Positions 7,496-62,824 of a stretch of DNA of 64,000 nt are shown here, piece after piece; the stretch's first letter is position 1; each line of letters begins with the position of its first letter. A program made the position numbers and the translations under genes. Origin of the DNA: an uncultured bacterium (GTDB taxonomy: Bacteria > Actinomycetota > Thermoleophilia > Solirubrobacterales > 70-9); NCBI GenBank assembly GCA_963786495.1, contig CAWAZL010000011.1:21216-85215 (forward strand). The letters are read 5' to 3'. Below the pieces are notes generated by a model. It did not search any database. It was given only the letters and a program-made list of their open reading frames with translations, and was not told the origin of the DNA.

Positions 7496-8081
7496 CTACT
7501 TGACGGTGAGGGTGCCTTCCATCCCGGACTCGCGATGGCCGGGAACCGAGCAGTAGAAGACGTACTCGCCTGGGTCGAGCTCGGCCGTGGCATCGGCGCT
7601 GTACCGCCACCCGTCACGGTTTCGCTCTGGGCGGGGGTCTCGCCATCGAGTCTCGATCGCCACGTTGTGCGGCACCTCTGATGGGTTCGTGTAGGTGAGG
7701 ACGACCTCGCCGGCTTTGGCCTCGAGCGCCTCGGGCTCGAAGATCAGATCGCCTGCCTCGGGTGAGGTCAGCGCGAGATCGCCGCCCTGGATCGGCTCCT
7801 CCATGTCGGTCGGCTCTTCCGAGGTGGACTCTTCGCCCTCTTCGAGCTCCTCGGCCTGTTCGGCGCCGGTACTCGAAGATCTCCGCCTCGCGGTGCTCGT
7901 GCTCCTCCCGGGCCAGCGAGATCGCGTACGCCGCCGATCCGACGACCAGGAAGGACATCAGCGCGAGGCTGCCGATCATGACCGGCCTGGAAGGGAAGCT
8001 CTCCATGCGCATGCCGACGAAGGCGACGACTACGGCCATCACCGTGAGCGCGATCCCGAACACGTAGAAGAGGTCGTTCAT
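7496..8081 (-). CDS. Membrane-anchored cupredoxin (plastocyanin/azurin-like) protein, frame broken near 7865-7875
   Basis: ORF 7614-8081 supplies two TM helices (FYVFGIALTVMAVVVAFV, IGSLALMSFLVVGSAAYAI). ORF 7496-7804 supplies the copper domain (...HNVAIE..., YVFYCSVPGHRESGMEG). The cupredoxin frame stays open upstream through an acidic linker (AEQAEELEEGEESTSEEPTD), so a 1-nt shift joins the two. Confidence 0.6.
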
Positions 8082-8139
8082 CCGGGCGCGATCCTATCGG
8101 GAGCAGGCACGGAAACCGCGTCGCTCGTTGCCCCTTCGC

Positions 8140-17822: not shown

Positions 17823-18506
17823 ATGTCTGATCCCACCTCTGGCCCAAGGGCGCAAAGCGCGCCCGAGCTGAAGGCCCAGATCGAAGCTGAGCGTGAAGGG
17901 CGGCCGTTCCTCGTCTACCGCGATGGCGAAGACCGCCAGGTGATCCTCCCCATCGAAGAGGAGCGCACGGAGCTGTGGGTTGGCCGGCGCGAGCCGGCCG
18001 AGATCCGCCTTGATTACGACGAGGAAGTCTCCGGCCTTCACGCGCAGATCGAGTTCGTCGGGCGCAACGGCACGCTCGTGGATGACGGACTTTCGCGCAA
18101 CGGCTCCTACGTGAATGGCGAGCGGGTGCGCGGCCGGAGGCTCCTTCGCGACGGCGACGTGATGCGCTTCGGGCGGTCGCTCGTGATCTTCCGCGCGCCG
18201 CACGCCGACAGTGCCGAGGCGACAGCGATCTCGACCGACCTCTTGGAGGCGGGAGGCGTCTCGCCGGCCCAGCGTCGCGTTCTGATTGCCCTGTGCCGGC
18301 CCTACAAGGACGGCGCCGCCTTTGCCACTCCGGCTTCCAACGGCCAAATCGGGGAGGAGCTCCATCTCTCCGTCGACGCGGTCAAGACCCACCTGCGCGC
18401 GCTGTTCGAGAAGTTCGGCGTCGCCGACCTGCCCCAGAACCAAAAGCGCGTGGCGCTCATCCAACGCGCGCTGCAGACGGGCATGGTCAACGAGCGGGAT
18501 CTGTAG
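17823..18506 (+). CDS. FHA domain fused to a LuxR/GerE-type HTH (transcription regulator)
   Basis: 227-aa ORF. FHA signature ...WVGRR...IRLDYDEEVSGLHAQIE...DDGLSRNGSYVNGERV. C-terminal NGQIGEELHLSVDAVKTHLRALFEKFGV. Paralog of 48776-49399. Confidence 0.75.
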   Translation: MSDPTSGPRAQSAPELKAQIEAEREGRPFLVYRDGEDRQVILPIEEERTELWVGRREPAEIRLDYDEEVSGLHAQIEFVGRNGTLVDDGLSRNGSYVNGERVRGRRLLRDGDVMRFGRSLVIFRAPHADSAEATAISTDLLEAGGVSPAQRRVLIALCRPYKDGAAFATPASNGQIGEELHLSVDAVKTHLRALFEKFGVADLPQNQKRVALIQRALQTGMVNERDL

Positions 18507-39521: not shown

Positions 39522-41791
39522 CTAGTTGTCCAGGGTCTGCTCGACCTGGCGCGTCGAGAAGACCTCGAGGACGTCGTCGACCTTCACGTCGGCGAAGCCC
39601 TCGAGCACGATGCCGCACTCCTGGCCCTCGGGGACTTCCTGAACATCGTCCTGGAAGCGACGAAGCGAGCCGATCCGGCCGGTCCAGGCGACGGTGCCGT
39701 CGCGCACGAGCCGGACCTCGGCGTCGCGGCGGACGATGCCGTCGGTGACCTCGCAGCCGGCGATCATGCCGACCTTCGAGGCGCGGAAGGTCTGCTTGAC
39801 CTCGGCCTGGCCGAGGATGTCCTCGACCTCGACGGAGTCGAGCATGCCCTCCATCGCGGCGCGGAGCTCCTCGGTCACCTTGTAGATGACGGAGTACGAG
39901 CGGATCTCGACGCCCTCGGACTCGGCGGCGCGGCGCGCGTCGACAAGCGGGCGGACGTTGAAGCCGATGATGATCGCGTCAGAAGCCGAGGCAAGCATCA
40001 CGTCGGACTCGTTGATCCCGCCGGCTGCAGCGCGAATGATGTTGATGCGCACCTGCTCCTGCGGGAACCTTGGCGAGCTCGTCCGTGAGCGCCTCGAGCG
40101 AGCCGGAGACATCGGCCTTGAGCACGATGTTGAGCTCCTTGATGACTCCTTCCTGCGCCTTGGCGAAGACCTCGTCGAGCGTGAGCTTGCGGGTGCCGCG
40201 GCGGGCGATCGCCTCGGTCTTCAGACGGTGTGCGCGCTCGCCGGCAAGCTGGCGGGCGCGGCGGTCGTTCTAGACGACCTCAACCCTCTCCCCCGCTTCG
40301 CAGACGCCGTCGAAGCCGAGCACCTCAACCGGGTCGCCGGGGCCAGCCGTTTCGACCCGCTCGCCTGTATGGCTGAGCATCGCGCGGACCTTGCCCCACT
40401 GGGCGCCCGCGACGACCGAGTCGCCGATGTTGAGCGTGCCGCGCTGAACGAGCAGCGTGACAACCGGGCCGCGGCCAGGATCGAGATGGGACTCGATGAC
40501 CGAGCCCGAGGCGTCGGCATCCGGATTCGCCCGAAGCTCTTCGACTTCGGCGACCAGGAGGATGCTCTCGAGCAGCTCGTCAAGTCCGGTCTTGGCCTTC
40601 GCGGAAACGTTGTTGAAGATCGTGTCGCCGCCCCAATCCTCCGGCTGCAGGTCGAGGTTCGCGAGTTCGCCCTTGACCTTGTCGACGTTGGCGGCCTCGA
40701 GGTCGATCTTGTTGACCGCGACGATGATCGGCACGTCGGCGGCGCGGGCGTGGTCGATCGCCTCGACCGTCTGTGGCATGACGCCGTCATCCGCTGCGAC
40801 CACCACGACGACGATGTCGGTGACGTCGGCGCCGCGGGCGCGCATCGCGGTGAAGGCCGCGTGGCCAGGCGTGTCGATGAACGAGATCGTCTTCTCGCCG
40901 GAGTGCACCTGATAGGCGCCGATGTGCTGGGTGATGCCCCCGGCCTCTCCCGCGACGACTTCGGTCTCGCGGATCGCATCGAGGAGCGAAGTCTTTCCGT
41001 GGTCGACGTGGCCCATGATCGTCACGACCGGAGGCCTGTCTTGAAGGTCGTCGGCGGAATCCTCGAAGACGATCTCCTCGGCCTCTTCCTCGGCGGCGCT
41101 GACCATCTCGGCCTTGCGGTCGAGGGCCTCGGCCAGGACGACGACCGTTTCGTCGGGAAGGGTCTGGGTGAGCGTTGCCATCTCGCCGAGCTTCATCAGC
41201 GTCTTGATGACCTCGGCGCTCGAGAGGCCAAGCGTCTCGGCAACTTCTTTGACCGTGGCGCCCGAAGGGATCTTGATGACCGGGATCTCAGTATCGACAG
41301 GCGCGGCTACCGGCGGCTCCTCGAGCAGCGGTCGCCGGCGGCGGCCTCCGCGGCGGCGCGGCGGGCGCTGTGGAGGCGGCGGGCCCATGGAATCGCGGCG
41401 TGAGGCTTGCGAGTCGATCACGACACGGCGGCGCTTGCCTTGGGCCCCGCCCGCAGCGGGCGCGGAACCGCCGTCGCCGGCAGGGCGCACGGGACGGACC
41501 GGCTTCGCGGATTCGGCCGCCGGCGCAGGCTTCCCTTCGGCTGACCGTGGGGACAGGCACCTTGTCCGCCGCGGGCTCATCCGCCTGGGCGGCTCCGGGG
41601 CCAGTCCCCGCGCTCGGTGCTTCGGAGACAGACGCGGGCGCGCCGCCGCCCAGTGCCTTCGCGGCGAGGTCTTCATCAACGCTAGAAGCAGCGGCCTTGG
41701 CTTCGATTCCGGCAGCCTGAAGCTTCGCGAGCACATCCTTGGATGTGAGGCCTCTTTCCTTGGCGATCTCGTGGACGCGCTTCTTGGCCAT
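39522..41791 (-). CDS. infB: Translation initiation factor IF-2; two frame breaks (about 41545 and 40068) and one in-frame TAG (40270-40272)
   Basis: N-terminus [24 protein letters not shown] (ORF 41288-41791). G domain [26 protein letters not shown] (ORF 40270-41736). C-terminus [23 protein letters not shown]... (ORF 39522-40112). Confidence 0.9.
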
Positions 41792-47851: not shown

Positions 47852-48751
47852 TCAATTCGACCTCAGGTTGAGGTGAAGGGTCGAGGCGTCGTTGAGAATT
47901 TCTTCGAGTCCATCGCGGACTCGGATTCCTGCTGCCGCATCGCGGAAGTTCGCGGTCCCGACGGCAATCAGTCCGGCCCCCGAGGCGAGGAACTCGGCGG
48001 CGTCCTGAGCCGTCTCGATGCCTCCCATCCCGATTACCGCGATCGAGACCGCGGCGCTGACGCGGCGCACCTGCTCGAGTGCGATCGCCCGCACCGCCGG
48101 GCCTGAGAGGCCGCCGCTTCCGGCACCCAGCCAGGGCTCCGACGAGCCCGGAGCAAGGCCAGTGGCACGGATGGTGTTGATCAGCGAGACGCCGTCGGCT
48201 CCCGCCTCTTCGGCCGCGACCGCGACCGCCGCTGGGTCAGCGGTGTTCGGCGTCAGCTTCACCACCAGGGGCTTCTCAGTCCGCTCGCGCAGCGCCGTCA
48301 CCAGGGCGTGCGTCTCCGCCGGTTGCTCGCCGACGATGAGGCCGGACTTCACGTTCGGGCATGACACGTTCAGCTCCAGCGCCGCAACCTCGTCGCGGCT
48401 GCCGACTCCATCGACGAGCCGCTCGAAGCCGTCGCGGTCCGTCGCCATCACGGAGACGATCAGCGGCACCGGCAGCTCGGCGAGCTGCGGAAGGTCGTTG
48501 GCGAGGAATCCCTCGAGGCCCTTGTTCGGCAGGCCGATCGAGTTGATCATCCCGCTGGGCGTCTCATAGAGGCGCGGCGGCGGATTGCCGGCGCGTGGGT
48601 CCGGGGTAATCGTCTTGGAGACGAAGGCGCTGAACGGGAAGTCGTCAAGCAGCGCGTCGCCGAACGCTCGGCGGGCGGCGATCGCGTCGAAGGTTCCGGA
48701 GCCGTTCAGGACGGGATGCTCGAGCGAGAGTGAGCCGATGTCGTAGGTCAT
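47852..48751 (-). CDS. pyrD: Dihydroorotate dehydrogenase, class 1B catalytic subunit
   Basis: 299-aa ORF. LNGSGTF, ELNVSCPNV, GGLSGPAV, IGMGGI. Confidence 0.9.
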   Translation of the reverse strand: MTYDIGSLSLEHPVLNGSGTFDAIAARRAFGDALLDDFPFSAFVSKTITPDPRAGNPPPRLYETPSGMINSIGLPNKGLEGFLANDLPQLAELPVPLIVSVMATDRDGFERLVDGVGSRDEVAALELNVSCPNVKSGLIVGEQPAETHALVTALRERTEKPLVVKLTPNTADPAAVAVAAEEAGADGVSLINTIRATGLAPGSSEPWLGAGSGGLSGPAVRAIALEQVRRVSAAVSIAVIGMGGIETAQDAAEFLASGAGLIAVGTANFRDAAAGIRVRDGLEEILNDASTLHLNLRSN

Positions 48752-48775: not shown

Positions 48776-49399
48776 TCAGCGGGCAAGATCCTTCGGCAGG
48801 ACGACGCCGCTCGCCAGGGCGCGGTTGGCGAGCTCCATGCGCTTGCGATTCCGGGGCAGGTCGGGCACCTCGAACAACCTGAAAAGGATCTTCATGTGAG
48901 AGCGAACGGCTTCGACCGAGACGACCAGCTCGTCGGCGATCTCGCGGTTCGACGGCGCCACGCCCGCCTCCCCGGGGTCGGCAAGCGGCCGGCAGAGCGC
49001 GGCGAGCACGCGATATTGCGCTCCGCTCACGTTCGCCATCTGGGCCCGCGTTGACGGTGGCGCGGTCTCATCGGCGGTGTCCGAGGGACTTCGGAACAGG
49101 ACCTCCGTCGCGCCGAAACGAACCAAGTCGTGGTCATAAAGGCGGCGGCGTCCATGAAGCCTCGCCCCGTTGACGAAGGTTCCGTTGCTGGAAATCTGGT
49201 CGTCCACGGCGATCCAGCTTCCGCCGAGCTTCTCGAGCACGGCATGCAGGCGCGACACCTCCGGGTCCCACGTGAGCGCGAGGTCGTTGTCCGCCTCACG
49301 GCCAACACTCAGACGCTCTCCCTTGAGTTCGATCACGTGCTCGGCGCCCTGGGCGTCTCGAAGCAAGAGGAACGCTGTGTTGGGAGGCGGATCGCTCAT
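48776..49399 (-). CDS. FHA domain fused to a LuxR/GerE-type HTH (paralog of 17823-18506)
   Basis: 207-aa ORF. ...LSVGREADNDLALTWDPEVSRLHAVLE...DDQISSNGTFVNGARL. C-terminal NREIADELVVSVEAVRSHMKILFRLFEV...RKRMELANRAL. Confidence 0.75.
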   Translation of the reverse strand: MSDPPPNTAFLLLRDAQGAEHVIELKGERLSVGREADNDLALTWDPEVSRLHAVLEKLGGSWIAVDDQISSNGTFVNGARLHGRRRLYDHDLVRFGATEVLFRSPSDTADETAPPSTRAQMANVSGAQYRVLAALCRPLADPGEAGVAPSNREIADELVVSVEAVRSHMKILFRLFEVPDLPRNRKRMELANRALASGVVLPKDLAR

Positions 49400-49417
49400 T
49401 CAGTCTTGGGCAAATGA

Positions 49418-50875
49418 TCACCCGATCATTCGAAAGGCAGTCCCAGTAAACCGATACGCGTGGATGACGGGCGCAGTCTCGCCCTTGTTGAGCCAGCGCA
49501 GACACAGGCCGTAGCGATCGCCGCAGAACGCGAACTCGTCGAGGTTCAAGAGCTCGCCGCCGGGGAGAACGTCTGGCGCCTCGATGCGAGCCAGACGCCG
49601 GCCCGCCTGGAAGGCGTCCAGCGCCACCCTGCTTTTGATGCGCACGAGGTCAACCCGCACGGTTTTACCGGCCTTGGTATCGACGAACCGCGAGCCGAGC
49701 ACCCGGCCCGGCGCTGCCGCTGCCGCCGCGTTTCCCGTGAGCTGCGCCGGCGGGGTCGCGCGAGTTCCTTCCTCGATCTCGACTTCGAGCCGGATCTCGC
49801 CCTCCAACCGGTCGAAACCATGCTTGTTCGGATCGGGCGCCAAGGCGCCGTTCCAGCGAACGACCGAGCGATCGGGCACGCCGTTCATCTCGCCGATGGT
49901 TGCTCCCGGGCCGAGCAGAACGCCGATGCGATCGCCGGGCTCGACGGCGACCTGCGATGAGAACTCATGAGTTCCGGTGTCGGGCGGCTGAGCGAGTTGA
50001 GAGAACCCGTGGACGAACGGCCTCTCGTCGTTACCGCGAATGATCTGGAGCGTCAGGTCTCCCGAGGCACCCGTCACCCGCCAGTTGGTGATGACTCCGG
50101 CGCGTTTGACTTCGAGCGGCTCGCCGGACCTGGTTGTCTGACTGAGGGTGCAGGCAGGGGTGTTGGGCCCCGGGTCCTCCGCGCAGCCGACGGTTTGAAC
50201 GCTGGTCTCGGGGCGATCGTCCTCACCGGAGCCCGAAGCGATCACCAGCCCGGCGCCCACGACCGCCAGGACCGCAAACGCAGCGATCGCCCGGGTTGCC
50301 AGTGACGCGCTCTGCCGCCGCATGCCTCCTGAGCTCACCAGCTCTTGAAGTGAGGCGAGAGCCTCGCGATCCGACGCCACCGTTCCCGGGCGGCCCAGCC
50401 CGAAATCCGTCAGGTGAGCGGCGCCTGATCCGTCGACCAACACGTTCCGTTCGTTGACAGCGCCGTGCACGAGGCCCGCGGCGTGCGCCGCGTCCAACGC
50501 AGCAGCGACCGGCTCGAGGAGCGCTCGGAGCCGCAGCGGCGACACGTGCTCCGCGGAGGTGAACTCGGCGAGAGTCCGGCCGCGAACGAGCCTGCTCGCG
50601 ACGAACTTCCCGCCTTCCCAGTCACCAGCCCCGTAGACGGGGACGACCCGCGGATGGTGAAATGTCGCCGCTCGGTTCTGCTGCTCGCGAAACGTCTCTG
50701 CTCGCCCCGCAGCGTCAAAGCACTCCGAGGGGATCAGGCGCAGCGCGACCGGGCGCGAAAGGGAAAGCTGAGTGGCCTCGTAGACCGCGCCGAGACTGCC
50801 CGTGCGGATGAGGCGTTCGATCCGGAAGCCACCGACTATGGCCCCGCGTTCCACTACCGCCTGCTCAGCTCGCAA
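49418..50875 (-). CDS. Ser/Thr protein kinase with TM segment and unassigned ectodomain (STK-1)
   Basis: 485-aa ORF. GSLGAVYEA, HGAVNERNVLV (atypical catalytic loop), DFG. TM AIAAFAVLAVVGAGLVIA. About 250 aa of ectodomain, homologous to that of STK-2. Confidence 0.75.
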   Translation of the reverse strand: MRAEQAVVERGAIVGGFRIERLIRTGSLGAVYEATQLSLSRPVALRLIPSECFDAAGRAETFREQQNRAATFHHPRVVPVYGAGDWEGGKFVASRLVRGRTLAEFTSAEHVSPLRLRALLEPVAAALDAAHAAGLVHGAVNERNVLVDGSGAAHLTDFGLGRPGTVASDREALASLQELVSSGGMRRQSASLATRAIAAFAVLAVVGAGLVIASGSGEDDRPETSVQTVGCAEDPGPNTPACTLSQTTRSGEPLEVKRAGVITNWRVTGASGDLTLQIIRGNDERPFVHGFSQLAQPPDTGTHEFSSQVAVEPGDRIGVLLGPGATIGEMNGVPDRSVVRWNGALAPDPNKHGFDRLEGEIRLEVEIEEGTRATPPAQLTGNAAAAAAPGRVLGSRFVDTKAGKTVRVDLVRIKSRVALDAFQAGRRLARIEAPDVLPGGELLNLDEFAFCGDRYGLCLRWLNKGETAPVIHAYRFTGTAFRMIG

Positions 50876-52749
50876 CGAACAGGAATCGGTTCCGGTATGC
50901 GCTGTAGCCGAGAAGCAGGAGCCTGCCGGTGTTCGGGTTGATCCACGACACGCCTACTGCCGCGTAGGGCTCGCCTTCGAGGACGAGGAGTTCGAGATCG
51001 ACCAACTGGCCTCCGGGGAGGAGGTCGGGCGCGAGGATCCGGGCCTGGCGCTCGCCATCATTCACAAGGTCCAGAAAGACCTTCCCCTTCACCTCGACGA
51101 GCTCGATCGTCACGGTGTCGGCCGGCTTTGAAATGTCCACCTCGGCTGACTTCCGGACACGGCCGTCGGGTGCGCGAGCCGCGGCGGAGCCCAGGAGTTG
51201 CTTCGGTTCCTGAAGCTTCTCACCCGGGACCAGGTCCGCGCGCAGCGCCAGCTCGTAATCGAAGCCGGTTCCTGCCTCTCGGTCAGGAAGGCCGAAGAAG
51301 CCACCTACCGGATCGAGCCACCTCTGGGTCGTCGCTCCCTCTGTGTCAGCCACGCCGATGCTGGCTCCAGGACCCAACTCGATGTCGATGAGGTCCCCTT
51401 GCTCGACGGGGATCTCCGTTTCGAAATAGTGCGGAGCTTCGTTACCAACGGATTCGCGATCGGACAGCGCTATCCGGATCGTGTCTTCACCGCCGGGTCG
51501 GATCACACCGAGCGCCATCTCCCCGCTCGCGCCTCGAACCGCCCACCCCGAGATGACCCCGTCTTCCGGGACGAGGAGCTGAGCCCCCGGCAGCTCTTGC
51601 TGGACGATCGCGCACGAAGGCGAGGAAGCATCGGGCTCACCCCCCCGGCAGTCGAGCGACTGGGTGGGCAAGGGCAATTCACTGCCGAGAGCCGTCGCGC
51701 CCGGCGCGACCGGCGGGACCGGGACCTCGGGCGGGGCCGGCTTCGCCTCGGAATCGAGAAGATGACCGGCACCAAGTCCTGCCGAGAACGCCAGCGAGCG
51801 CTACGCCCGCCAGCACCGCAACCGTCGGCTTCTTGCTTCGGACTTGCCGGGCAGCCGGTTGACCCAGCGAGGGAACGGTGATCGGCGTTGGATACTGGCC
51901 GCGCGGCGGGCGTGGCGGGCCGAGCCCCGCGACGAGATTCTCCCCGAGGCTCTTTCTAACCGCCAAAACCAGGTCGCGGGCGCTGTCCGGACGATCGCCT
52001 GGCTCTTTCGCCAGTGCCCGCTCGAAGAGCTGGTCAAGAGCCGGCGGGAGCTCCGGGCGTCGCTCACTGATCTTGGGCGGAGGCTCAGTCGTATGCGCGA
52101 ACAGCACTGCTGCATCGGATCCCCGCGGGAACACGAAGTCTCCGGCCAGACAGTGGAAGAGGCTCGCCGCAAAGGCGTAGCGATCGGAAGCGGGCGTAGG
52201 GTCCTCACCCCTGACAACCTCGGGCGCGAGGTAGGCGACAGTGCCCACCATGAGCTGCGACGCAGCGGTCATCGCCTCGGTGCCCGCCCGCGTCAGCCCG
52301 AAGTCGGCAAGGAACGCGTAGTCGTTCTCGACCAAGACGTTCTGGGGTTTGACGTCACGGTGCACCAGGCCGGCCGCGTGCGCTGCGTCAAGGGCATCGC
52401 CGACCTGCTCGAGCAGGGACAGGGTCCGCTGTCCGTCGAGTCTGCCGTCTCGCAGGAGCTCGGCGAGCGTGGCGCCCTGGACGAGCCGCATCGAGATGAA
52501 GAGGCCGCTCTCAGAATCGCCGACCTCGAACACGTCGAGGACGTGCGGGTGCTCTAACGAAGCCTGCATCCGCCCCTCGCGCCGCAGGCGCTCGGCGAAG
52601 GCGGGATCTCCGGCTAGTTCCGGCCGCAACACCTTGAGCGCAACGCGACGTTCGAGCGATGTTTGCACCGCCTCGTATACGACCCCCATGCCACCGCGCC
52701 CGAGCGTGCGCTCGACGCGGTATCCCTCAAAGCTTTCGGACTCGATCAT
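50865..52749 (-). CDS. Ser/Thr protein kinase with TM segment and the same ectodomain (STK-2), frame broken near 51775
   Basis: Kinase ORF 51679-52749 (GRGGMGVVYEA, HRDVKPQNVLV, DFG, APE) runs into the TM (PTVAVLAGVALAGVL). A 1-nt shift continues ...SAGLGAGHLLDSEAKPAPPEVPVPP...LPLPTQSLDC into ORF 50865-51677. Confidence 0.75.
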
Positions 52750-52908
52750 CGGCCCTCCGTGCCGTAAAGCCGCACCCTACCCGGCGCGCATCGCTGAAGG
52801 GTGAGTGTTTCACCCCTCTGGGGTATTGCGAGCGCCACTCGACGCAACTAGGGTCGCCACGAGCTAGAGGTGTTCAGTAGATCCACGGGCTCGGGAGGAG
52901 CGTGCGGT

Positions 52909-53121
52909 ATGTCGGTTGGCCCAACGGAGGTGGCTGTCTTACTGATCCTTTTCCTCCTCGTGTTCGGTGCCCGTAAGGTGCCGGAGGCGGGCCGCGCCCT
53001 GGGCACCAGCCTGAGGGAGTTCAAGCAGGGGCTGGCGCAGGCGAAGGAGCCGATCGAGCTCGCAAGGGATTCGCTTGAGCCGGGAACGGGCGTGCAGGGA
53101 CCCAGTGGCGAGCGGCTCTAA
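52909..53121 (+). CDS. tatA: Twin-arginine translocase subunit TatA/E
   Basis: ORF 52870-53121. ATG 52909 is preceded by GGGAGGAG 8 nt upstream. MSVGPTEVAVLLILFLLVFGARKVPEAGRALGTSLREFKQG matches the TatA TM plus amphipathic-helix hinge (FG..K.P). Confidence 0.85.
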   Translation: MSVGPTEVAVLLILFLLVFGARKVPEAGRALGTSLREFKQGLAQAKEPIELARDSLEPGTGVQGPSGERL

Positions 53122-53131
53122 CGGCACAGAC

Positions 53132-56100
53132 GTGCCAGGGCGGGGAGCCCCGGCGGCCGAAATTGCGAACGGCATTCGCCGGCGTGAGCTGCTCGTCGCG
53201 GGTGGCGCCGTCGCTGGTGCTGCCCTCATTACCCGGTTCGAGAGCGGAACGGCGCTCTTCGATCAGCTACTTCGCGGCTCCGGCGAGGGGCCCTCGTTCA
53301 CGGCGCGCATGCTGCGCCCTGAGGACATGCTGGCGTTCGACCTCGAGTTCTACGACGCCTCATATGAGGTGAACGGAGAAGGCCAACCCTTCGCGTTCCC
53401 TACGCCCACCGACGGTACCCAGCGCGAAGATTTTTGATGGTCGCCGTGTTCGGGCCCCAATCGGTTGCGGAGGAGCCCTTCACAGCCACCGGGAGTCCCG
53501 TAACCACGACAACACCGCCCGTTGCGGCCCAGGTAGGCGGTCCCTCCCGCCTCGCTTTCTCCGTTCGCGGCGTACTGTCCCTCGAAGAGGGGTCGCTCCT
53601 CAACTTCGTCACGCTCAATACGCAGCCTCCATCCCCCCGAGCCGAGCGCGGGGGGAATTCGCTTAGCAAGAAGATGCTGCTCGTTCCGGCGGCTCGATCG
53701 AAGAAAGATCGAAAGAAGCTCAAGCTGCGCGCGGGCCCGCAGAAGCCGAAGCCCACCGAGACCGCCATCGAGGCGCCTTTCCGGATGGTGATCTCTCCAG
53801 CCCTGGACGGAGCCGGCGAGCAGTTCTGGCGGAACCGCACCAGCCCCTTGATCGATGCCGGGCGCACTGAGCTCTGGCACACCAGGCTCGTGAACCTCTA
53901 CTGCCTTGACAATCTGTGTTCTGGCGGGGACAGCGACCTGAACGGCGAGGCAAAGCCCGAGAGCGAGATCAGGGCGGTCTGGACTCCAGGCTGGAACGTC
54001 AACCCGGAAAAGACGAAGGAAACCGCTCCCGATCCGTTCGGCCCCTCCGGGCGGCCGATGACGCTGACGCCGAAAGCCCGCAGCGAGATCGTCAGCCTTT
54101 CCTCCAACCATAAGTCGGGCAACCCTCCAACCTCCGGGAGGTCCCGCTTGCTGACGCTGAGCGCGCTGGGCTCCTCGCATGACGTGCGCTTCGACTTCCC
54201 CGACCTGAAGGGCGACCAATATGGGGTGACCCACTGGAGCAACCGGGGAACGCTCGGGCGGGATCACTACGTCAAGGTCGTCCAGAGCGGCTGGCTGTTC
54301 CCCTTCGGCCACGAGGCGGCCCTGATCGACATCAGCGAGCGGCAAATCGATGTCAGGAGCGGCAACGCCTACGCCGTGGTGAGAAAGCGCCAGTACCTGG
54401 TCGTCAAGCAGAAGACCAGGAACTACTCGAGCCTCGAGTTCCCGTTCACCTCGGTGACGGTGGTGGACGAGATCACGCCTATCCTCGACGAGGCGCGGAA
54501 CACCCAGACCCCCGGCAACACGGGCGACGGTTCCTTCTGGCCCGCGGTGGGAGGGCGCGATTACCTCTGGACCCTCGCGGCCACGGATGTCGAAGGCATC
54601 CGCGTCGAGTTCCAGGCACCCATGATCTGGGTCAGCGACGCCACCGGAACGGGGGGCGCCGGCACCAAGCGGATCGTCAACCTCGCCGGCTACTACGCCG
54701 GCGATGCCCGTAGTAAGCGACCTCTCGGAGGCCAATCGGTCGCCTACGCGAAGCCCGTTCCGGGGAAGGCGCGCCAGGCCGCGTTTCCGACCGATGTGCT
54801 GGAGCTCGGTGCCGTCCTGACCGGGGGTGGCACGACCCCGAGGTTCACCCCGAAGATGCGGGCGGCGTCGATCAAGAACCCTGCGCTCGGAGGGCTGGGG
54901 GGCTCAGGTGCTGGGGCTCAGGCCAGAGGGGCGCTGAGCCCCGAAGCTCTGCTCCGCGTGAAGCCGGCCGAGGTCTACGTCAAGGAGGGGTTCAACCAGG
55001 CCAAGAACGCCGCGCAGACCTATCTCACGTTGGCGGAGGAGGTTGCACTCGACTACACGAAGGACGCGGGTGCGGCCGCGACCGGCGCCCTCGGCGCGCC
55101 GAACATGGAGCTCACCGCCCTGTCGAGGACCCTCGGCCCACTGGGAGGCACGCCCGAGGACGGAAGTTTGCCCAATCTCAAACCCGCCGATTTCCTCAAG
55201 GGCGCGAAGTTCCTCGGCATCGAGTTCACCGACGTCCTGCCCGCCAGCATCCCCCTCCCCGACTCCCCAACTCGCCCAACTACGCGGCGGCCGCCGCGAA
55301 GGTGCCCCGGACGCTCACGGAGACGATCTACGAAGGCGGCACCGGTCAGCTTGCGCGCAAGATCCCACGGGAGATCCGAACAGAGTTCGTCTGGGAGCCC
55401 GAGCTGAAGGGGAACGGTGTGTTCATCGCCAACGGCGCCGGGGGCACGCCGAAGGCCACGATGCTCCTGCGAAATGTGACCGTGGTTCCGGTCACCTCCG
55501 ACTCCGAGGAGGCGCTCGGAAAGGCCCGCCAGGACACGACCGGCGAGCTCAAGAACTTCGGTCTCTCCCTGTTCGGCGAGCCGGGCAGCTCCAGCGCGTT
55601 CCTGATCCTCTACTTCAACCGCTTCGAGTTCCGCTCGCGCAACGACCAGAAGCCCGACGTCAACGTCGACATGCGCGATGTGGTCTTCGCGGGCCCGCTC
55701 TCATTCGTCAACGACCTGCGCAAGCTGATGAGCTCCTTGAGCGGCGGCTCGGGCCTATCGATCGACATCACACCTGGTGGCGTGGTCGCCGGCTACGGGC
55801 TCGACTTCCCCACGATTACCACCGGCATCCTGACCCTCGCGGATCTCAGCTTGGGCGCCCAGGTCGAGGTGCCGTTCGATGGCAGACCGGTCACCGACGC
55901 GCTTCAACTTCTGCAAGCCGGACCGGCCGTTCCTCCTCACCTACACCATCTTCGGCGGCGGCGGATACGCGAACATCGCGATCAACTCGGAGGGCGTCGA
56001 ATCGCTGACCGTGTCGCTCGAGTTCGGTGCCGCGGCTGCACTGAACCTCGGCGTCGCCTCGGGAAGCGTGCAGGTCATGGCCGGGATCATGATCAAGGTC

Positions 56101-56472
56101 GAGACGATCGAGGGGAAGACCGACGCGACGCTCGCCGGCTTCGTGCGGTTGCGGGGGGAGTTGGAGGTGCTCGGCATCATCAGCGTGTCGCTTACGTTCA
56201 ACCTCACGCTCGCCTACGAAACCGGATCCGGCGAAGCATGGGGGCGCGCGACGCTGACAGTCGAGGTCGAGGTTTTCTGCTTCTCGAAGAGCGTGTCCGT
56301 CTCTTGCGAAAAGCGGTTCAAGGGTGGCGGAGGTGGTCTCCGGGCGCGAGACGGCGACAAGAAGGCGCTCAGAGGAGGCAGTCCCGCCGTTTCCCCAATT
56401 TCGTTCGCCGAGTTGTTCTCGCCGGAGAGCTGGGACACCTACCGCGCCGCCTTCGCGCAGGAGGCTTTCTGA
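53132..56472 (+). CDS. Giant ORF-A (about 1110 codons), twin-arginine signal, unknown function; frame breaks near 53435, 55255 and 55890
   Basis: GTG 53132 lies 10 nt after tatA. The signal region is ...AEIANGIRRRELLVAGGAVAGAALI. Pieces 53075-53437, 53434-55407, 55302 to about 55890, and 55879-56472 join with continuous GC3 bias. I recognised no known motif. Confidence 0.6.
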
Positions 56473-59400
56473 TGGCCAGGCAGAGGATCTACTACATGGC
56501 GCTGCCACGCGGCGTCAATCCCTCCAATGGCAATCTTCGCGTCTCGGTCTTCGTCTCCCCGCGGCTGGAGCCGGATACCGCGGGTCGCCTCCGAGGAGGC
56601 TCCTCCTCGGGGCAGCTCGGCGAGTATCCCGATTGGGTCGATTGGCCGGACACCGTCAGGAACCGGATCGACTGGAACTTCGGCATCTCAGCCGGCGGAG
56701 AGGACTACGAGCCGCAGGTGACCATCACGAGCGCTTCGCCTTCGTCTTCGGCTTGGAGCCAGCTGTGCCCTCCCGACTCCCCGCTCGAGGACTTCCCAGG
56801 CCCGCTACCTCGGCCTTTCGGCGACAGCTACGTCTTGTCTCACCCGGACAAGCCGGTCGAGGACTATCTCATCAAGACGCTCGTCGGACTTGCCAACAAC
56901 CCCGACGAACCCGACATCGATGCCGCGCGCGATGCGTACTCGGCGATCGACTTCTACGACCCCGCACGGGATGATCTGAACATCGACGGCCAACTCGCCG
57001 AGATCGTCGATCAGCTTGCCGAGACAGGCACGGTCCGAAGTGATCCGAACAGGCCCGACCTCGACATCGTTCAGGGGCTGCTGCTCAACGAACCGACGCT
57101 CGAGAACCTCCGAGCCGCCTGCGAGGCCGTGCGATCCGGCGCTCAAGCGCGGACCCTCGCGACCCAGGTCCGCGGCGGCGAGCCTCCTCGTCCGGAGGAC
57201 CCACCGGAGGCGCCCAACCTCGACTTTCACCAGGCAGCCAGCGCTGCGGCCGCGCATCCGTTCCTCCTGCGGCAACTAGGGCTGGTCGTCGACTTCGAGT
57301 TCCCGTTCCCGCCGGACCTCGAAGTGACGGAGCCGATCGAGGCGCTCGTCTTTTTTGAGGCCAACCTGGACTCACAACTGCCGCCCATCGAGATCATCCC
57401 GACACCTCTTCTCCTTACCCGGTGCCTGCTCAGTACCACTGTGTTCGAGGCCGCGCCGAAGGCGTTCAAGCCCGCTACCGAGCGGGGTCTCCTTCGCCTG
57501 TCCGACCAGCTCGAGACGGGGCCTAAATACGGGCTTACCCAGACCGACCCTCAGGGCGGCATTCTCAAGACGCTCGAATTCATGAAGAACATCGCACGCC
57601 TGACGATTCCCGAGCGGTCGAGTCCGTTTGCGCCGGAAGACCAGCCTCCGCCGTCCTTGAGGGCCGCTGGAATCTCGGTCACCGAGCTGGATCGGGGAAG
57701 GAGCGCTCTGGGCGAGTTACAAGCGCCAAGTGAGCCTGAACAAGAAGATGCTGAACACCTCCGCCTCGGCGCCGCCGATCATTCTCGACAGAGAGGACAT
57801 CACTCGCGGCTACGCGTACGACGTCTTCGACTCGGTGTCGAGCCGCTGGTACTCGCTGTGCCAGCCGAATTGGTCGCGCCCGCTTCGGCGACGCAGCCGA
57901 AGATCCGAGCCCGGATCCGCTACCTGGTGACCTCACCTGGGAAGACGAGGGCTGGGTCTCACCAGCGGTCACCGAGGGCTACCGCGTGGCGGACACGATC
58001 AGGCGATCGGTCGATTCGATCGCGAGCTGGGCGAACGGGTGGAGCATGGTCACGGCGCGACCGGGCCAGTCGGTCACCGATGAGGAGCAGGCCGTCGAGC
58101 GAGCTCCGGAAATCGGCGATTTCAAGCTCGCCGTCCGCTACGTGGCGAAGCCGGGTTCGCTGCCGCCGCAGCGATACGGGCGGACCTACCGATTCCGTGC
58201 GCGTGCGGTCGACCTGGCTGGAAACGCGATCACGAGCGACGAGGCGACCGCGCTCGGGGGGCCCCATGTCCTCGAGACGCCCTACGGGCGCTTCGAGCCG
58301 GTTGCACCGCCGACGATCGTGATGCGAAAGCGGGTGACCGAGGGGGAATCGCCCGACCTAGTCGTAATTCGCAGCAACTTCGAAACCGCAGCGGCCCTGA
58401 CGGATCCCTCGGACCGCCATTTCTTCCCCCCTCCCTTCGACGAGTTCCGCTCGGAGTGCCACGGAATGTTCGACGCTGCGGACGGCATCAACGCCGGCCT
58501 CTACGACCAGATCGCCGCGCGCGAGCGAGGCTCGTTCGACGCTCGCGACTCCTCAGGCAACTTCATCCACCCTGATGCCCAGGAGGACCCGGGCAACTAC
58601 GACGCCCCGTACTTCGACGTCGACACGCCTCAGTTCGACGTCGAGGGCTCGACTCTTGCAAGCACCCCCTCGTTGCCCGACCCGATGTGCGGCGGGTTTG
58701 CCTTAGTCGGGCTCCCGGGCTTGTCGCCGGGCAGCGTGCAGGTCTACGACATCTACCGCAACGGCGCCACTTGGCCCGACATCAAGCCGGTCCGACTGCG
58801 CGTCTTCGAGAGCGCGGGTTTCGTGGCTCCCGCTCTCGTCGGCGACGAACTGCGGGTTGGACTACCCAAGGCGGAGTCTTTCACGGTGAGTTTGAGCTCG
58901 TCGCTGGTCGCCTCGCTCATCGGCCACATGGCCGTGCCAAGCCAGCTTCCCTCTTCGCTTCAAGCGCTCATCATCAATGGCCAGCACTGGGCGGTCACGC
59001 CAGCCCGCAAGCTGCGGCTCGTCCATGCGGTGCGCCAACCGCTTCGCGCGACAGAGTTCAGCGGCGGCTTCATGGTAACGCGCGAGGTTGGAGAGACATC
59101 GATCCTGCTCGAGGACACGATGGCGACCTCGCGCAAGAGCACCGAGCGGGTGGAGGTACACGCGGACTGGGTCGACAAGACGGACTATCTGCCGGTCGGC
59201 GTCGACGAGTTTCATAATCCCGAGCAATGGCAGCCCGAGCGCGAGGTGCCGGTGAGCGCCAAAGTGTTCGAGCAGCCGATCGACCTCGAAGGGCCCAACG
59301 GGTCGCTGCCGATCAACGAGCGGCACGAGCTGCACACCACGCGTCACATCCCGGCGATCTCCTACCGGACCGTCGCGACGACCCGGTTCAAGGAGTACTT

Positions 59401-60670
59401 CACAGAACGGGCAGAAGTCACGCTCCAGGAAACGGGCGTTCCCGCGTTCCTCCCATCCGCCTACACAGGGCCCGCTGCTCCAAACGGGCTGGGCGTCGTG
59501 GAGGACTCCGAGCGGGTTACGAGCCTCGACGGAACGCAAACGTTCGAGCGCAACCAGCCCGGCGAGGAGGCGGGCCACTACACGATGGACTACGAGGCGG
59601 GCACCATTTCGCGGTTCGACGTCGAGGGGCGCGCCACCGACTTGCCGGATCAGGTGCGGGTGACGTACATCAAGCGCGAGATCACCCGCGAGGCCGAACC
59701 GACTGTCAAGAGGGCGCTGAGCACCCGCAGGCCCGATCCCCCCAAGCTCCAGTACGCGATGCCGGCGTTCAGGCGGATCACCGACGTCCAAAGCGGCTAC
59801 ACGACGGCACTGCGGGAATCGACGGGGCTTCGGATCTTCCTGGACCGTCCCTGGTGGTCGTCGGGCGACGGTGAGCTACTGGGCGTTGTCCTCTCCGACC
59901 AGCCGGATTCAACCGGCGTGCAGCATCTGGTCACCCGTTTCGGTCAAGACCCGATCTGGGACTCAGAAAGCGTGTCAGAGCTTCCGCAGCTCATCGACTT
60001 CTCCGCTGGCGTCGCTTCGCGGAGCAACCTTCGCCTCCTGGAGGCACCGAGCGATCGGACCTTCACGGTGGTGGGACACGAGGTGAAACCCGACCCTGAG
60101 CATCTGCGCTGGTATTGCGACATCGATATCCCGCACGGAGATGCCTACACGCCATTCGTCCGCTTGGCCCTGGCTCGATATCAGCCGAACGCCGTCTTCG
60201 GACTCGACCTGTCGCCGGTCGTTCAGCTCGACTACATGCAGCTGTACCCGAACCGCTTCGCGAGCGTGGTCGATCTCGGCAACGACTTCGCCTACGTCAC
60301 CGTCAGCGGCACCACCTACGAAGCCGGGCGCTCCAGGAGAACTTCGAGGGATCTGGTCTCGGGCCCATCGATAATCGAGGCGCAGGTGGAGCAACGCCGG
60401 GACGACATGCAGTTCACCGACGACCTCTTCGGATGGGTCCCGGTACCCGGAGTCGATTCGGTCAGGCTCGAATACCGAGAGGGCATCGAAGGAAGCCCGG
60501 ATTTCTGGGCAGGGGAGGTCCCCATCTTCGAAGCAGGCCGGCAACGGATCGCGATTCGCGAGTACGAGCAGTTCGGCCCGAAGACCGGGATCGGAACAGG
60601 CGTGTATCAGCGCCGGCTCGTGTACGCAGAGGCGATCGACGTCCCCTCCGACGCAGGGGAAACCCCGTAG
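56472..60670 (+). CDS. Giant ORF-B (about 1400 codons), no signal peptide, unknown function; frame breaks near 57700 and 57868
   Basis: ATG 56472 shares a base with ORF-A's TGA (TGATG). MARQRIYYMALPRGVNPSNGNLRVSVFVSPRLEP... lies in the frame of ORF 55302-58322. It continues in 57730-57930 (...VSLNKKMLNTSASAPPIILDREDITRGYAYDVFDS...), then in the frame of 57986-60670. Confidence 0.6.
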
Positions 60671-60687
60671 GCGATGGAGGGCGTGAC

Positions 60688-61968
60688 GTGACAGCCCGGG
60701 CGGGCGTGACGGCGATTGCCATTGCGGCACTGGTGCTGACCTCCTCTCTCGCCTCGGCGGGCTCGAATCCGCAGACTGAGCGGGCAAGCGTGAGTTCGGA
60801 AGGAGCCGAGGCCGGCGCATCGAGCTCTCAACCCTCGCTGTCCTCGAATGGGCGCTACCTGGCATTCGTCTCGTCGGCGGACGATCTCGTCGCCGACGAC
60901 TCGAACGGCGCAGCGGACGTGTACGTCCGCAACCTGAAGCGCGGGAAGACGACCCGCGTCAGCGTCGGCCGGAAACGTGTTGAGGCGGACGGAGCGAGCT
61001 CCGAGCCGACGCTTTCCGCAAACGGGCGCTACGTGGCCTTCGTCTCCCACGCGACCAATCTCGCCAAGACGGACAAAAACGACCAGGGGGACGTCTTCGT
61101 CCGCGACCTCAAAAGGGGTAAGACGCAGCGCATCTCGCTAGGTAGGCGCGGTGCCGAGCCGAACTGCGGCTGCTTTCACCCGGTGATCTCCGGCAACGGC
61201 AAGTTCGTCGCGTTCTCATCGTTCGCGACCAATCTGGTTCGCCGAGACAGAAACGAAAGCGCCGATGTCTTCCTTCGCGACATCAAGAAGCGAAAGACGA
61301 CGCGGCTCTCCGTCGGGCCGAAGGGGACGGAAGCCAACGGCGACAGCTACCAGCCGTCGATCTCGGCCAGCGGCCGGTCCGTCGCCTTCGCCTCCGATGC
61401 GACCAATCTCGCGAAAGGCGACGACAACGGCCTGGCAGATGTCTACGTCCGTGAAGGGCGTCGGACCATTCGGATCAGCCGCGGCCTCGAAGGCAACGAG
61501 CCCGACGGCGACAGCTTGGCACCGGCGATCTCGGCGAAGGGGAAGGCCGTTGCGTTCTCGTCCTTTGCGGATAATCTCGTTGAGGACGACGGCAACGCGG
61601 TCGCCGACGTGTTCCTGAGCGATCTCAAAGGTGCCGCGAAGCGTGCCAGCGTCGCCTCTGCCGGAACGGAGGCCGACGACGAGAGCTTCGCCCCATCGCT
61701 CTCGGGCAACGGGAAGTCAATTGCCTTCTACTCCTACGCGACCAACCTCGTCGCCGCCGATGAGAACGAAGTTCGAGATGTCTTCGTTCACAGCGTGCGC
61801 GCGGCGACGACCGAACGCGTAAGCGTCAGCTCAAGCGGTGTCGAAGGCGATGCCGCGAGCTTTGCTCCCTCTATTTCAGGGAACGGGAGCGTTGTCGCGT
61901 TCAGCTCGTCCGCGAGCAACCTGGTGGACGACGACTTGAACGAAGTTCTCGACGTTTTCGTGCGCTAG
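60688..61968 (+). CDS. Secreted PD40/TolB-like beta-propeller protein (seven repeats)
   Basis: In-frame GTG 60688 with GGAGGG 6 nt upstream. Signal peptide VTARAGVTAIAIAALVLTSSLASA. Seven ~58-aa repeats of S.S.NGR.VAF.S.A.NLV..D.N...DVFVRD. Confidence 0.7.
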   Translation: MTARAGVTAIAIAALVLTSSLASAGSNPQTERASVSSEGAEAGASSSQPSLSSNGRYLAFVSSADDLVADDSNGAADVYVRNLKRGKTTRVSVGRKRVEADGASSEPTLSANGRYVAFVSHATNLAKTDKNDQGDVFVRDLKRGKTQRISLGRRGAEPNCGCFHPVISGNGKFVAFSSFATNLVRRDRNESADVFLRDIKKRKTTRLSVGPKGTEANGDSYQPSISASGRSVAFASDATNLAKGDDNGLADVYVREGRRTIRISRGLEGNEPDGDSLAPAISAKGKAVAFSSFADNLVEDDGNAVADVFLSDLKGAAKRASVASAGTEADDESFAPSLSGNGKSIAFYSYATNLVAADENEVRDVFVHSVRAATTERVSVSSSGVEGDAASFAPSISGNGSVVAFSSSASNLVDDDLNEVLDVFVR

Positions 61969-61972
61969 TACG

Positions 61973-62824
61973 TCATCGGTGGCCGGATCCGGCGACGAGC
62001 GCGGTCTCGATCTCGTCGGCTCTGACGACAGGCCCGTCGACACACAGGCGCATGTAGCTGCCGTCGCTCAGGGGGACCGCGCAGCCGAAGCAAGCGCCGT
62101 AGCCGCAGGCCATGGGCGCCTCCATCGCGAGTTCGGCCTGCGCGCCCCGCTCCGCGCAGATTGCGCGCACCGCCTCGAGCATCGCGGGAGGGCCGCACGC
62201 GTACACCGCCGCACCGGCTGCGTCGTCGCCCTTGAGCGCGACCTGGAGGAGGTCCGTGACATAGCCCTGGTGGCCGCGGTGCCCATCCTCGAACGCCAGC
62301 CCAACCTCCTGGCAGGCCCCGAAGAGCTCGAGGCCGCCCGAGTGGGCCTCGTCGCGAAAGCCGAGGAGCGTTCGCCCGGGGATGCCCTGCTGGGTGAGGT
62401 GCCGGCGCAGGATCGCGATCGGCGCGACGCCGATGCCACCGCCGACCATGATCGCGCCGGGAGCGCCGGGGTTGACCTCGTCCGGCTCGGCGAAGGGGCG
62501 GCCCAGCGGTCCGGTGATGGTCAGCTCAACCCCCGGTTCGAGCGCTGCCAGGATCGAGGTGCCCGGGCCGACGGCCTCGACGAGGAACTCCAGGCGGACG
62601 CCGTCAGCGGTCCGCTCGGCCGCGGCGACCGAGAAGGCGCGCGGCAGGAACGGGCGGCCGGCCGCAGAGCCCCAGCCGTCTGAGCGCAGCATGTAGAACT
62701 GCCCCGGAGCCGGGTCGGGACCGTCCGTATCAAGAGCCGTGAAGACGACGTAGCCCCCCGTCTCGCGGCGGGCCACCACGCTGGTGCTCCGGGCGCCGAA
62801 GGGGGCGAGGACTCGGGCGCTCAC
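61973..62824 (-). CDS. pyrK: Dihydroorotate dehydrogenase electron-transfer subunit (FAD/NAD-binding, 2Fe-2S)
   Basis: 283-aa ORF. RAFSV FAD motif, GGGIGVAP, and C-terminal Cys cluster MACGYGACFGCAV...C. ATGA overlap with carB. Confidence 0.9.
   Translation of the reverse strand: MSARVLAPFGARSTSVVARRETGGYVVFTALDTDGPDPAPGQFYMLRSDGWGSAAGRPFLPRAFSVAAAERTADGVRLEFLVEAVGPGTSILAALEPGVELTITGPLGRPFAEPDEVNPGAPGAIMVGGGIGVAPIAILRRHLTQQGIPGRTLLGFRDEAHSGGLELFGACQEVGLAFEDGHRGHQGYVTDLLQVALKGDDAAGAAVYACGPPAMLEAVRAICAERGAQAELAMEAPMACGYGACFGCAVPLSDGSYMRLCVDGPVVRADEIETALVAGSGHR

Follow-up and report, generated by a model that had tools for sequence, protein, structure and literature searches.

A widespread, unannotated bacterial gene pair with a candidate twin-arginine signal and recurrent linkage to tatA

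Some substrates of twin-arginine translocation (Tat) are exported as heterodimers in which only one partner carries a signal peptide, according to one report (PMC10924467), and PaoABC is described as a ternary hitchhiker in another (PMC4273604). In Bacillus subtilis, the TatAdCd translocase is co-expressed with PhoD, its only known cargo, and the working upper limit for Tat cargo is placed at ~150 kDa (PMC6708511). Here, we describe two very large adjacent genes, A and B, in a 64,000-nucleotide stretch of DNA (the window; contig CAWAZL010000011.1 of assembly GCA_963786495.1, positions 21,216 to 85,215 of the forward strand) from an uncultured bacterium of the order Solirubrobacterales. Based on the analyses below, we lean towards a reading in which their products (119 kDa for A, 154 kDa for B) would form a complex that is exported by Tat and has its role in the cell envelope; the physical association of A with B, the co-export of B, and the function in the envelope are each predicted.

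As in Tat hitchhiker hetero-oligomers (heterodimers, PaoABC), the signal is found on only one A-B subunit, the genes are adjacent and co-transcribed, and folding and assembly would precede export; Streptomyces MelC1/MelC2 is another example of a Tat hitchhiker. Unlike these systems, A and B have no cofactor-binding motif and no kinship to them in sequence or fold, co-export of B is a proposal, and subunits of 119-154 kDa would add up to a complex of ~273 kDa, compared with the known limit of ~150 kDa. On its own, A (119 kDa) stays below this limit. The locus also resembles cargo-dedicated Tat systems (PhoD with TatAd-TatCd in B. subtilis, the TatA paralogues of Campylobacter jejuni), as tatA is present in the operon of the presumed cargo in several lineages. 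In contrast to those systems, A-B is linked to tatA only and never to tatC, and tatA is located upstream or downstream depending on the lineage.

Pairing, family membership and reading frames of A and B

When the C-terminal 894 aa of B were used as a query, 499 protein matches were obtained, typically of 1300-1400 aa, and the reconstructed A sequence yielded 424 protein matches of 980-1790 aa. A scan of one genome per species identified B relatives in at least 531 species from the Actinomycetota, Chloroflexota, Bacillota (Paenibacillus, Symbiobacteriaceae), Acidobacteriota/Aminicenantes, Armatimonadota, Bacteroidota/Rhodothermales, Alpha- and Betaproteobacteria, and Verrucomicrobiota. Among 1.84 billion representatives clustered at 50% identity, the A profile had 6557 matches at E ≤ 1e-3 and 3591 at E ≤ 1e-30. 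In addition, B relatives are found on 16 plasmids or chromids (Bacillus cereus-group megaplasmids, Streptomyces, Rhizobium, and Cupriavidus CH34), always in unannotated DNA or as a "hypothetical protein," and virtually all A and B relatives in databases are unnamed or "hypothetical."

Gene neighborhoods were analyzed in 87 fetched loci, 83 of which contain DNA upstream of B. In all 83, which represent many phyla, A is directly upstream of B on the same strand. The gap between the two genes has a median of 13 nt and is 30 nt or less in 71 of 82 pairs, 12 of the 82 being overlaps. Across 69 loci, the pairwise identities of A track those of B (r = 0.89; r = 0.67 for pairs below 50% identity). There were no A-B fusion proteins among 134 new top representatives, and all-against-all clustering of the flanking open reading frames (ORFs) of the 87 loci revealed no conserved third gene; the best flanking cluster (15 of 87 loci) is a generic ABC transporter, and the others are also generic, for example LuxR-type regulators. 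Because A is always upstream, the gaps are short or overlapping, the identities are correlated at r = 0.89, and no third gene is conserved, we conclude that A and B form an obligate, co-evolving module of two genes, belonging to a very large bacterial family that lacks annotation. The tight coupling of the pair that a first-pass annotation of the window had proposed is supported, and the co-translation and probable complex that it read from the stop/start overlap are reasonable predictions.

One metagenome-assembled genome (locus L008, contig CAVRJK010000002.1, 2.43 Mb; P0122/P0082/P0006) contains two A-B pairs. The first is ~69% identical to the window, and its B gene is again fragmented; the second is intact, and its B protein is only ~44% identical to window B. 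Paralogous A-B copies therefore coexist in one genome.

Searches of Pfam and NCBIfam with the A and B fragments of the window returned only a sub-threshold TAT_signal match at the A N-terminus (E = 0.28), and intact relatives had no match in Pfam, NCBIfam, PADLOC, PHROGs, or PDB sequences. When 38 A and 35 B relatives were scanned singly at E ≤ 1, TAT_signal was the only Pfam model found, in 6 of the 38 A proteins. Profiles built from 92 A and 95 B relatives matched nothing among PDB sequences. A motif scan found no Walker A, LPXTG, CxxCH, or CxEQ motif in A or B, a repeat search of the A/B region revealed no tandem repeats and only three trivial two-copy repeats of ~20 nt, and no domain or motif diagnostic of Tc, RHS, RTX, or LPXTG proteins was present (Pfam, NCBIfam, LPXTG scan, tandem-repeat scan). 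The possibility that A and B are paralogues of each other was rejected (hhalign probability 0.2%). Literature searches did not recover a description of the family. Based on these searches, A and B appear to belong to no recognised family. This agrees with the first-pass annotation, which had reported by eye a non-repetitive sequence with no recognisable family and no Walker A or LPXTG motif, and the frame-corrected proteins likewise match no known family.

The window has a G+C content of ~66%, and on the + strand between 53105 and 60670, G+C at third codon positions (GC3) is 0.75-0.92 in the coding frame throughout; the best frame switches several times. Before correction, the ORF list for this region contained fragments of 120, 657, 197, 1006, and 894 aa. 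The frames were corrected by tblastn of the window with the intact A and B proteins of a related metagenomic contig (L001). This placed gene A in four segments, 53105-53434 (frame 2), 53434-55263 (frame 1), 55266-55895 (frame 3), and 55897-56472 (frame 1), and gene B in three, 56472-57698 (frame 3), 57706-57864 (frame 1), and 57866-60670 (frame 2). Window A is 65-70% identical to intact relatives of 1089-1129 aa, and the 894-aa C-terminal query from window B is 83% identical to an intact relative of 1393 aa. The corrected genes (Table 1) are close to the ~1110 and ~1400 codons that the first-pass annotation had estimated after joining frames, and the strong GC3 bias, the base shared by stop and start in TGATG, and the four peptides it quoted were all recovered. 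Its start for A (53132) is an in-frame GTG, but it is nine codons downstream of the GTG at 53105, which aligns with the start of an intact relative.

The corrected genes contain five frameshifts in 7.6 kb, three in A and two in B, and several lines of evidence point to assembly indels rather than decay as their source. The first, at ~53434, is located in a T5 run, where the relative reads …RPDFYMVAVFGPQ and the window reads …REDF, a stop, and then LMVAVFGPQ. The essential gene for translation initiation factor IF-2 (infB, 39522-41736, -) is also split into two ORFs in different frames, 41736-40270, which contains IF2_N, the GTPase domain, and domain II, and 40112-39522, so there is at least one indel error in the assembly. 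Similarly, a 1-nt frameshift at ~51783 divides a Ser/Thr kinase of the window (627 aa in L001) into ORFs of 356 and 270 aa. There are zero stops within the 2519 corrected A and B codons, and the ratio of nonsynonymous to synonymous substitution rates (dN/dS) against the relatives, which are intact, is 0.18-0.48 in every A and B frame segment. The database entries for the window's own genes are likewise fragments (P0001, 894 aa; P0125, 656 aa), and A and B are broken up in the same manner in the closest sister assemblies.

The alternative that this genome holds only a dead family copy, with A and B as pseudogenes in decay, is very unlikely. This explanation draws on the density of the frameshifts, some of which lie outside homopolymers, compared with one frameshift in the ~5.6 kb of the remaining syntenic block. 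It is opposed by the frameshifts in infB and in the kinase of the same window, by corrected frames without stops in which GC3 stays high, by dN/dS values that remain at 0.18-0.48 downstream of every shift, and by the same fragmentation in sister long-read assemblies. The decay that the first-pass annotation had allowed for is thus improbable. A suspected frameshift in carB at 63924 was rejected, as the frame is open up to the window end.

The N-terminus of A and its linkage to tatA

The N-terminus of window A is MASGSNGTDVPGRGAPAAEIANGIRRRELLVAGGAVAGAALITRFESG…, in which residues 24-30 are I-R-R-R-E-L-L (motif RRRELL) and are followed by an uncharged, weakly hydrophobic h-region, LLVAGGAVAGAALI. 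Tat signals were scored in the family as an RR motif plus a 12-aa uncharged window with a mean Kyte-Doolittle value above 1.1. By this measure, 52 of 76 A relatives from species-representative loci have an RR motif and an uncharged hydrophobic stretch, and the motifs of many are canonical (SRRRFL, TRRKFL). Textbook Tat motifs are present in proteins from Lentzea (SRRRFLYLAGAGG), Saccharicenans (TRRKFLSYAGILGA), Bacteroidetes (DRRKFFKSVGIGALA), and Alphaproteobacteria (SRRRMIGLGLAG), and an AxA site is seen in some relatives (…LAVASAG, …RAFAGT). When a stricter scan was applied to a broader sample, at least 78 of 212 A proteins were Tat-positive. By comparison, in 82 of 82 loci B starts within the first 6 positions of the conserved profile (MxxQ..W.ALPNG…), so that no room is left for a signal.

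TatA sequences together with a small TatA profile were used to search all 87 loci, and Pfam confirmed five of the matches. Besides the window, 11 of the 87 loci, representing about six lineages, have a tatA gene that directly abuts the pair and lies on its strand. It is upstream of A in the window clade and in L083, and immediately downstream of B in Dormibacteraceae (L014), Symbiobacteriaceae (L016, L043), Streptomyces herbicida (L031), and Actinosynnema/Lentzea (L023, L027, L030, L040). In the window, tatA shares 17 nt with the start of A, and its product is 71% identical to that of the tatA upstream of A in L001. All 10 of the tatA-linked loci with a scorable A N-terminus are Tat-positive, and none is Tat-negative. 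Because each bacterial genome has only a few tatA-type genes, it is very unlikely that tatA came to adjoin the pair by chance in about six lineages independently. In L014, an ORF following tatA (7816-8619, 267 aa, seven hydrophobic segments, no Pfam match) was considered as a TatC and rejected.

In the mechanism that we propose, A and B would be produced from one mRNA by coupled translation, and both their folding and their association would take place in the cytoplasm. The twin-arginine signal at the N-terminus of A would then bring the folded protein to the Tat translocase, the extra TatA encoded by the operon may provide protomers for an unusually large cargo, and B, which is signal-less in all relatives, would be exported as a hitchhiker on A. 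The resulting ~273-kDa complex, predicted to combine beta-sandwich domains and a porin-like amphipathic beta-meander in A with a helical head and a long immunoglobulin (Ig)/macroglobulin (MG)-like array in B, would act outside the cytoplasmic membrane. Indirect evidence for the proposed complex is provided by the co-evolution of A and B (r = 0.89) and by their conserved terminal motifs, and the tatA genes abutting the pair in 11 of 87 loci and in the window lend indirect support to an export that would depend on Tat. As part of the same explanation, the region is on balance best read as an operon, tatA-A-B-PD40, that is intact save for assembly indel errors.

A few relatives contain accessory domains of extracytoplasmic type, namely cohesin and TTR-52 in A and ASH/HYDIN Ig-like domains in B. 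In one A relative (P0321, 1731 aa), a C-terminal Rv2525c-like glycoside-hydrolase-like domain (PF08924; 32 bits compared with a cut-off of 27.2) is followed by repeats. Rv2525c itself is a Tat-exported, cell-wall-related protein of Mycobacterium tuberculosis.

Several observations weigh against export of the A-B complex by the Tat system. The window motif, RRRELL, is not the textbook RRxFLK, the Pfam TAT_signal match is the sub-threshold one given above, and an AxA cleavage site is not visible in window A (…ALITRFESG), where the signal could be an uncleaved anchor. At 273 kDa, the cargo would have almost double the mass of the largest one known for Tat, and tatC was not found beside the linked tatA genes. 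About one-third of the A relatives are without a Tat motif; A proteins that have no signal occur in Kitasatospora, some Streptomyces, Paenibacillus alvei, the B. cereus group (including the Bacillus wiedmannii plasmid pBwiPL1-1), and several Proteobacteria. A large A subfamily (P0146, P0167, P0181, and many others; L090, L091) has a basic N-terminal tail instead, 60-100 aa rich in Lys, Arg, Ala, Ser, and Pro and resembling a histone tail, and its partner B (1443-1458 aa) is still adjacent. This tail could be a different targeting label, perhaps for a polyanion or nucleic acid. Other A relatives have an N-terminal extension of 400-500 aa with no Pfam match. The existence of signal-less and basic-tail A proteins shows that the core function of A-B is not strictly dependent on export. 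We suggest that the A-B core works with different N-terminal "address labels," export being a predicted property of the majority, the window included, rather than of the whole family.

Predicted structures and competing explanations

AlphaFold2 models were made with family alignments for an A relative (P0124, 1089 aa) and a B relative (P0029, 1193 aa, which is without profile positions 1-61 and 900-970). The A model had a predicted local distance difference test score (pLDDT) of 82.6 and a predicted template-modelling score (pTM) of 0.70. It consists of a disordered N-terminus that includes the signal and a remainder that is almost all beta, ending in ~280 residues (strands 771-1049 of P0124) that form hairpins of 12-18 residues and hold FGGGG and GVASG. 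Foldseek searches of the PDB with this model gave weak matches only, to SlpA, FimD/PapC ushers, LptD, and porins (best E = 2e-5), with probabilities for the barrels of up to 0.99 yet template-modelling (TM) scores of 0.33 or less. Nothing better was found in BFVD, where weak matches to tail fibre and host-specificity proteins had a best E of 1.6e-4 and TM scores below 0.1. Like outer-membrane barrels (FimD/PapC, LptD, Deinococcus SlpA, porins), A has an antiparallel amphipathic beta-meander together with beta-sandwich domains. It differs from them in its low TM scores, in having a Tat signal or none rather than a Sec signal, and in its frequent occurrence in Actinomycetota, Bacillota, and Chloroflexota, monoderm groups that lack an outer membrane.

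In the B model (pLDDT 90.0, pTM 0.74), an N-terminal region that is helical in part precedes numerous beta-sandwich domains and long hairpins. The Foldseek matches of B in the PDB include the MG arrays of complement C3 and alpha-2-macroglobulin, mastigonemes, integrins, and receptors with Ig and fibronectin type III (FN3) domains, with E values down to 1.8e-7. Bacterial alpha-2-macroglobulins are envelope proteins of ~1500 aa. B shares with alpha-2-macroglobulin and C3, its best matches (E = 1.8e-7 to 1e-5 over ~900-1000 aligned columns; probability 0.98), the form of a long chain of beta-sandwich domains. Unlike these proteins, it aligns with a TM score of ~0.1 and a root mean square deviation above 45 Å, no helical thioester domain is evident in the model, and it always occurs with a partner, A. 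A Pfam A2M or MG domain was found in 0 of 35 B relatives even at E ≤ 1, the B profile matched nothing among PDB sequences, and the thioester motif CxEQ (C[GLAS]EQ) was found in 0 of 95. Members of the alpha-2-macroglobulin family that lack the thioester exist, so absence of CxEQ is not excluding on its own. Because unrelated Ig/FN3 arrays match equally well, the similarity of B seems to be of a generic multi-sandwich kind.

Judging from these models, neither A nor B seems to have a structural relative in the PDB beyond generic fold matches. The models bear out the beta-rich character that the first-pass annotation had attributed to both proteins, their secondary structure being mostly beta, and the Foldseek comparison it had suggested returned generic beta-barrel and Ig-array matches only (TM ≤ 0.33). 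In addition, numerous polar positions of A and B (Arg, Asp, Glu, His, Trp, Tyr) are invariant although the relatives compared share only ~30% identity. Such conservation favors an interface, a binding site, or an active site under constraint over a passive scaffold.

Several other explanations were considered. If A alone were exported through Tat, B could be a giant cytoplasmic partner dedicated to folding, assembly, or quality control, or it could act on A before export. This would fit with the lack of a signal on B in 82 of 82 loci, with the existence of dedicated cytoplasmic chaperones for known Tat substrates, and with a total mass of 273 kDa that is above the known limit of ~150 kDa (PMC6708511). 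However, known Tat chaperones are small, whereas B is 1400 aa, all-beta, and Ig-array-like; the ASH/HYDIN Ig-like domains added by some B relatives are typical of extracytoplasmic proteins, and B is equally conserved in Tat-less pairs, where an export chaperone would be needless. We regard a B protein that stays inside as unlikely. Alternatively, A and B could be a two-component pore-forming toxin or bacteriocin-like weapon in which the hairpins of A insert into membranes and B serves in receptor binding or as a shield, an explanation to which we assign the same low likelihood. The long amphipathic beta-hairpins of A, with their invariant Gly-rich motifs, and its Foldseek matches, all of them membrane beta-barrels, fit with such a toxin, as do the sporadic distribution, the copies on megaplasmids of the B. 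cereus group, Streptomyces, and Rhizobium, and the genome with two paralogous pairs. Like Tc (ABC) toxin complexes and other large multi-gene toxins, A and B are very large proteins encoded by adjacent genes that are sporadically distributed and in some cases plasmid-borne in insect-associated Bacillus. Unlike Tc toxins, they have no VRP1, TcA, RHS, or SpvB domain and no fold match, and the family is also present in sediment Dehalococcoidia, Aminicenantes, and Acidimicrobiia. There is no similarity to a known pore-forming toxin fold or family, the TM scores to barrels do not exceed 0.33, no conserved immunity gene adjoins the pair, and in diderm bacteria Tat leads to the periplasm only.

A cytoplasmic machine, for example an anti-phage sensor with its effector, in which the Tat-like N-termini would be secondary or incidental, is less probable still. 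The A proteins without a signal (about one-third), the subfamily with a basic tail like that of nucleic acid-binding proteins, and the two-gene, sporadic, plasmid-borne organization shared with many defence systems are consistent with it. On the other hand, two A and two B proteins had 0 PADLOC matches at E ≤ 1, no NTPase, nuclease, or other enzymatic domain was found, and the flanking genes are atypical of defence islands; canonical Tat motifs in 52 of 76 relatives across phyla and the recurrent linkage to tatA also speak against it. The least probable of the explanations, and an extremely unlikely one, would make the pair a structural module of prophage or tail-like type (tail fibre, baseplate). 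The proteins are large, all-beta, and multi-domain, and there are weak BFVD matches to tail fibre and host-specificity proteins, but the best of these matches has the low scores given above, PHROGs gave 0 matches, tblastn of A and B against 50,697 phage genomes was empty, and no phage genes were seen in the flanks.

For the Tat-exported A-B complex that we favor, the activity can be guessed at only tentatively. A role in the envelope in binding, in trapping, or as a barrier is possible; a membrane-inserting toxin and a polymer-degrading enzyme are both more doubtful.

Genomic surroundings and significance

The features of the locus are listed in Table 1. The PD40 gene starts 9 nt after B and is found behind B only in the window, L001, and L002, and we consider it a lineage-specific fourth gene of the operon. 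The FHA protein and the two kinases are neighbors rather than conserved partners, being absent from the distant loci that were examined. The first-pass annotation had combined tatA, the PD40 propeller, the kinases, and the FHA regulator with A and B into a candidate envelope or secreted system. A tatA-linked system of this kind is plausible from the signal on A and the recurrence of tatA in distant lineages, but PD40, the kinases, and FHA are not conserved parts of it, as they accompany the pair only in the close relatives L001 and L002 and do not occur in the other loci that were fetched.

Table 1. Positions of features in the window and, where a locus is named, of genes that follow the pair in other genomes
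Feature	Position	Strand	Remarks
FHA protein	48776-49399	-	Pfam; divergent from operon
Ser/Thr kinase, first	49418-50875	-	Pfam
Ser/Thr kinase, second	50868-52749	-	Pfam, tblastn; frameshifted at ~51783
tatA (TatA/B/E family)	52909..53121	+	~70 aa; Pfam TatA_B_E E = 4.7e-15; first operon gene
Gene A	53105..56472	+	Frame-corrected: 1121 codons, 118.9 kDa; apparent frameshifts at ~53434 (T5 run), 55264-55265, 55896
Twin-arginine signal of A (candidate)	53171..53230	+	Residues 23-42, GIRRRELLVAGGAVAGAALI; RR motif, uncharged h-region
C-terminal part of A	55897..56472	+	Long amphipathic beta-hairpins; invariant FGGGG, GVASG; conserved W..Y(C).AFA tail
TGATG stop/start overlap	56470..56474	+	A TGA 56470-56472, B ATG 56472-56474
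Gene B	56472..60670	+	Frame-corrected: 1398 codons (2 unresolved, X), 153.9 kDa; apparent frameshifts at ~57699-57705, 57865
PD40 (TolB-like) beta-propeller protein	60679..61968	+	N-terminal signal; Pfam PD40 E = 3.4e-25
Post-pair gene, Streptomyces herbicida	L031 14318-15901		Right-handed beta-helix
Post-pair gene, Amycolatopsis and Actinoallomurus	L003 13878-15098; L038 13947-15296		Unannotated, 406-449 aa; five-locus cluster

In several lineages, B or the linked tatA is followed by a gene for an all-beta protein with an N-terminal hydrophobic, signal-like segment, a different one from lineage to lineage (Table 1). These proteins may be a variable accessory or specificity subunit.

In the window, the 13-kb block from 48776 to 61968 (FHA, two kinases, tatA, A, B, PD40) is located between pyrD (47852-48751) on one side and pyrK (61973-62824) and carB (62821 to the window end) on the other, all on the - strand. 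The block appears to have been inserted into, and to have split, an operon for pyrimidine biosynthesis. In L001 the same block is also beside pyr genes (pyrB, pyrR), in another arrangement. Another FHA-domain gene (17904-18503, +) and another Ser/Thr kinase gene (20909-18843, -) of the window encode products that are 40-45% identical to the FHA/kinase pair beside tatA. Elsewhere, the B. wiedmannii plasmid pBwiPL1-1 (L088, AP022644.1 153490-160793), a conjugative megaplasmid of 364 kb, carries a signal-less A-B pair of 1003 + 1388 aa with a 126-nt gap, and similar pairs are present on other B. cereus-group megaplasmids. The opposite-strand genes beside the L088 pair have N-termini that resemble nonribosomal peptide synthetase condensation and adenylation domains, as judged by eye.

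A pair found in at least 531 species that is still nameless, is covered by neither a Pfam nor an NCBIfam model, and lacks a structural relative in the PDB is a large blind spot of annotation, and confident models of relatives of both A and B are now at hand. It is possible, as a tentative view, that A-B is an unrecognised and widespread envelope machine, a folded Tat-exported heterodimer of ~273 kDa whose subunits have folds without a solved counterpart and for which the extra TatA of the operon would scale the translocation site. If A, and especially A together with B, is exported through Tat, the pair would be a natural test case for how Tat scales to the size of its cargo, and the two proteins together would possibly be the largest Tat cargo yet seen. 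The recurrent operon-encoded TatA would provide a genetic handle, as it could be deleted while the housekeeping TatA stays in place. The location of some pairs on megaplasmids and the presence of paralogous copies suggest that A-B has an accessory, ecologically relevant function, which may lie in competition, protection, or polymer attack.

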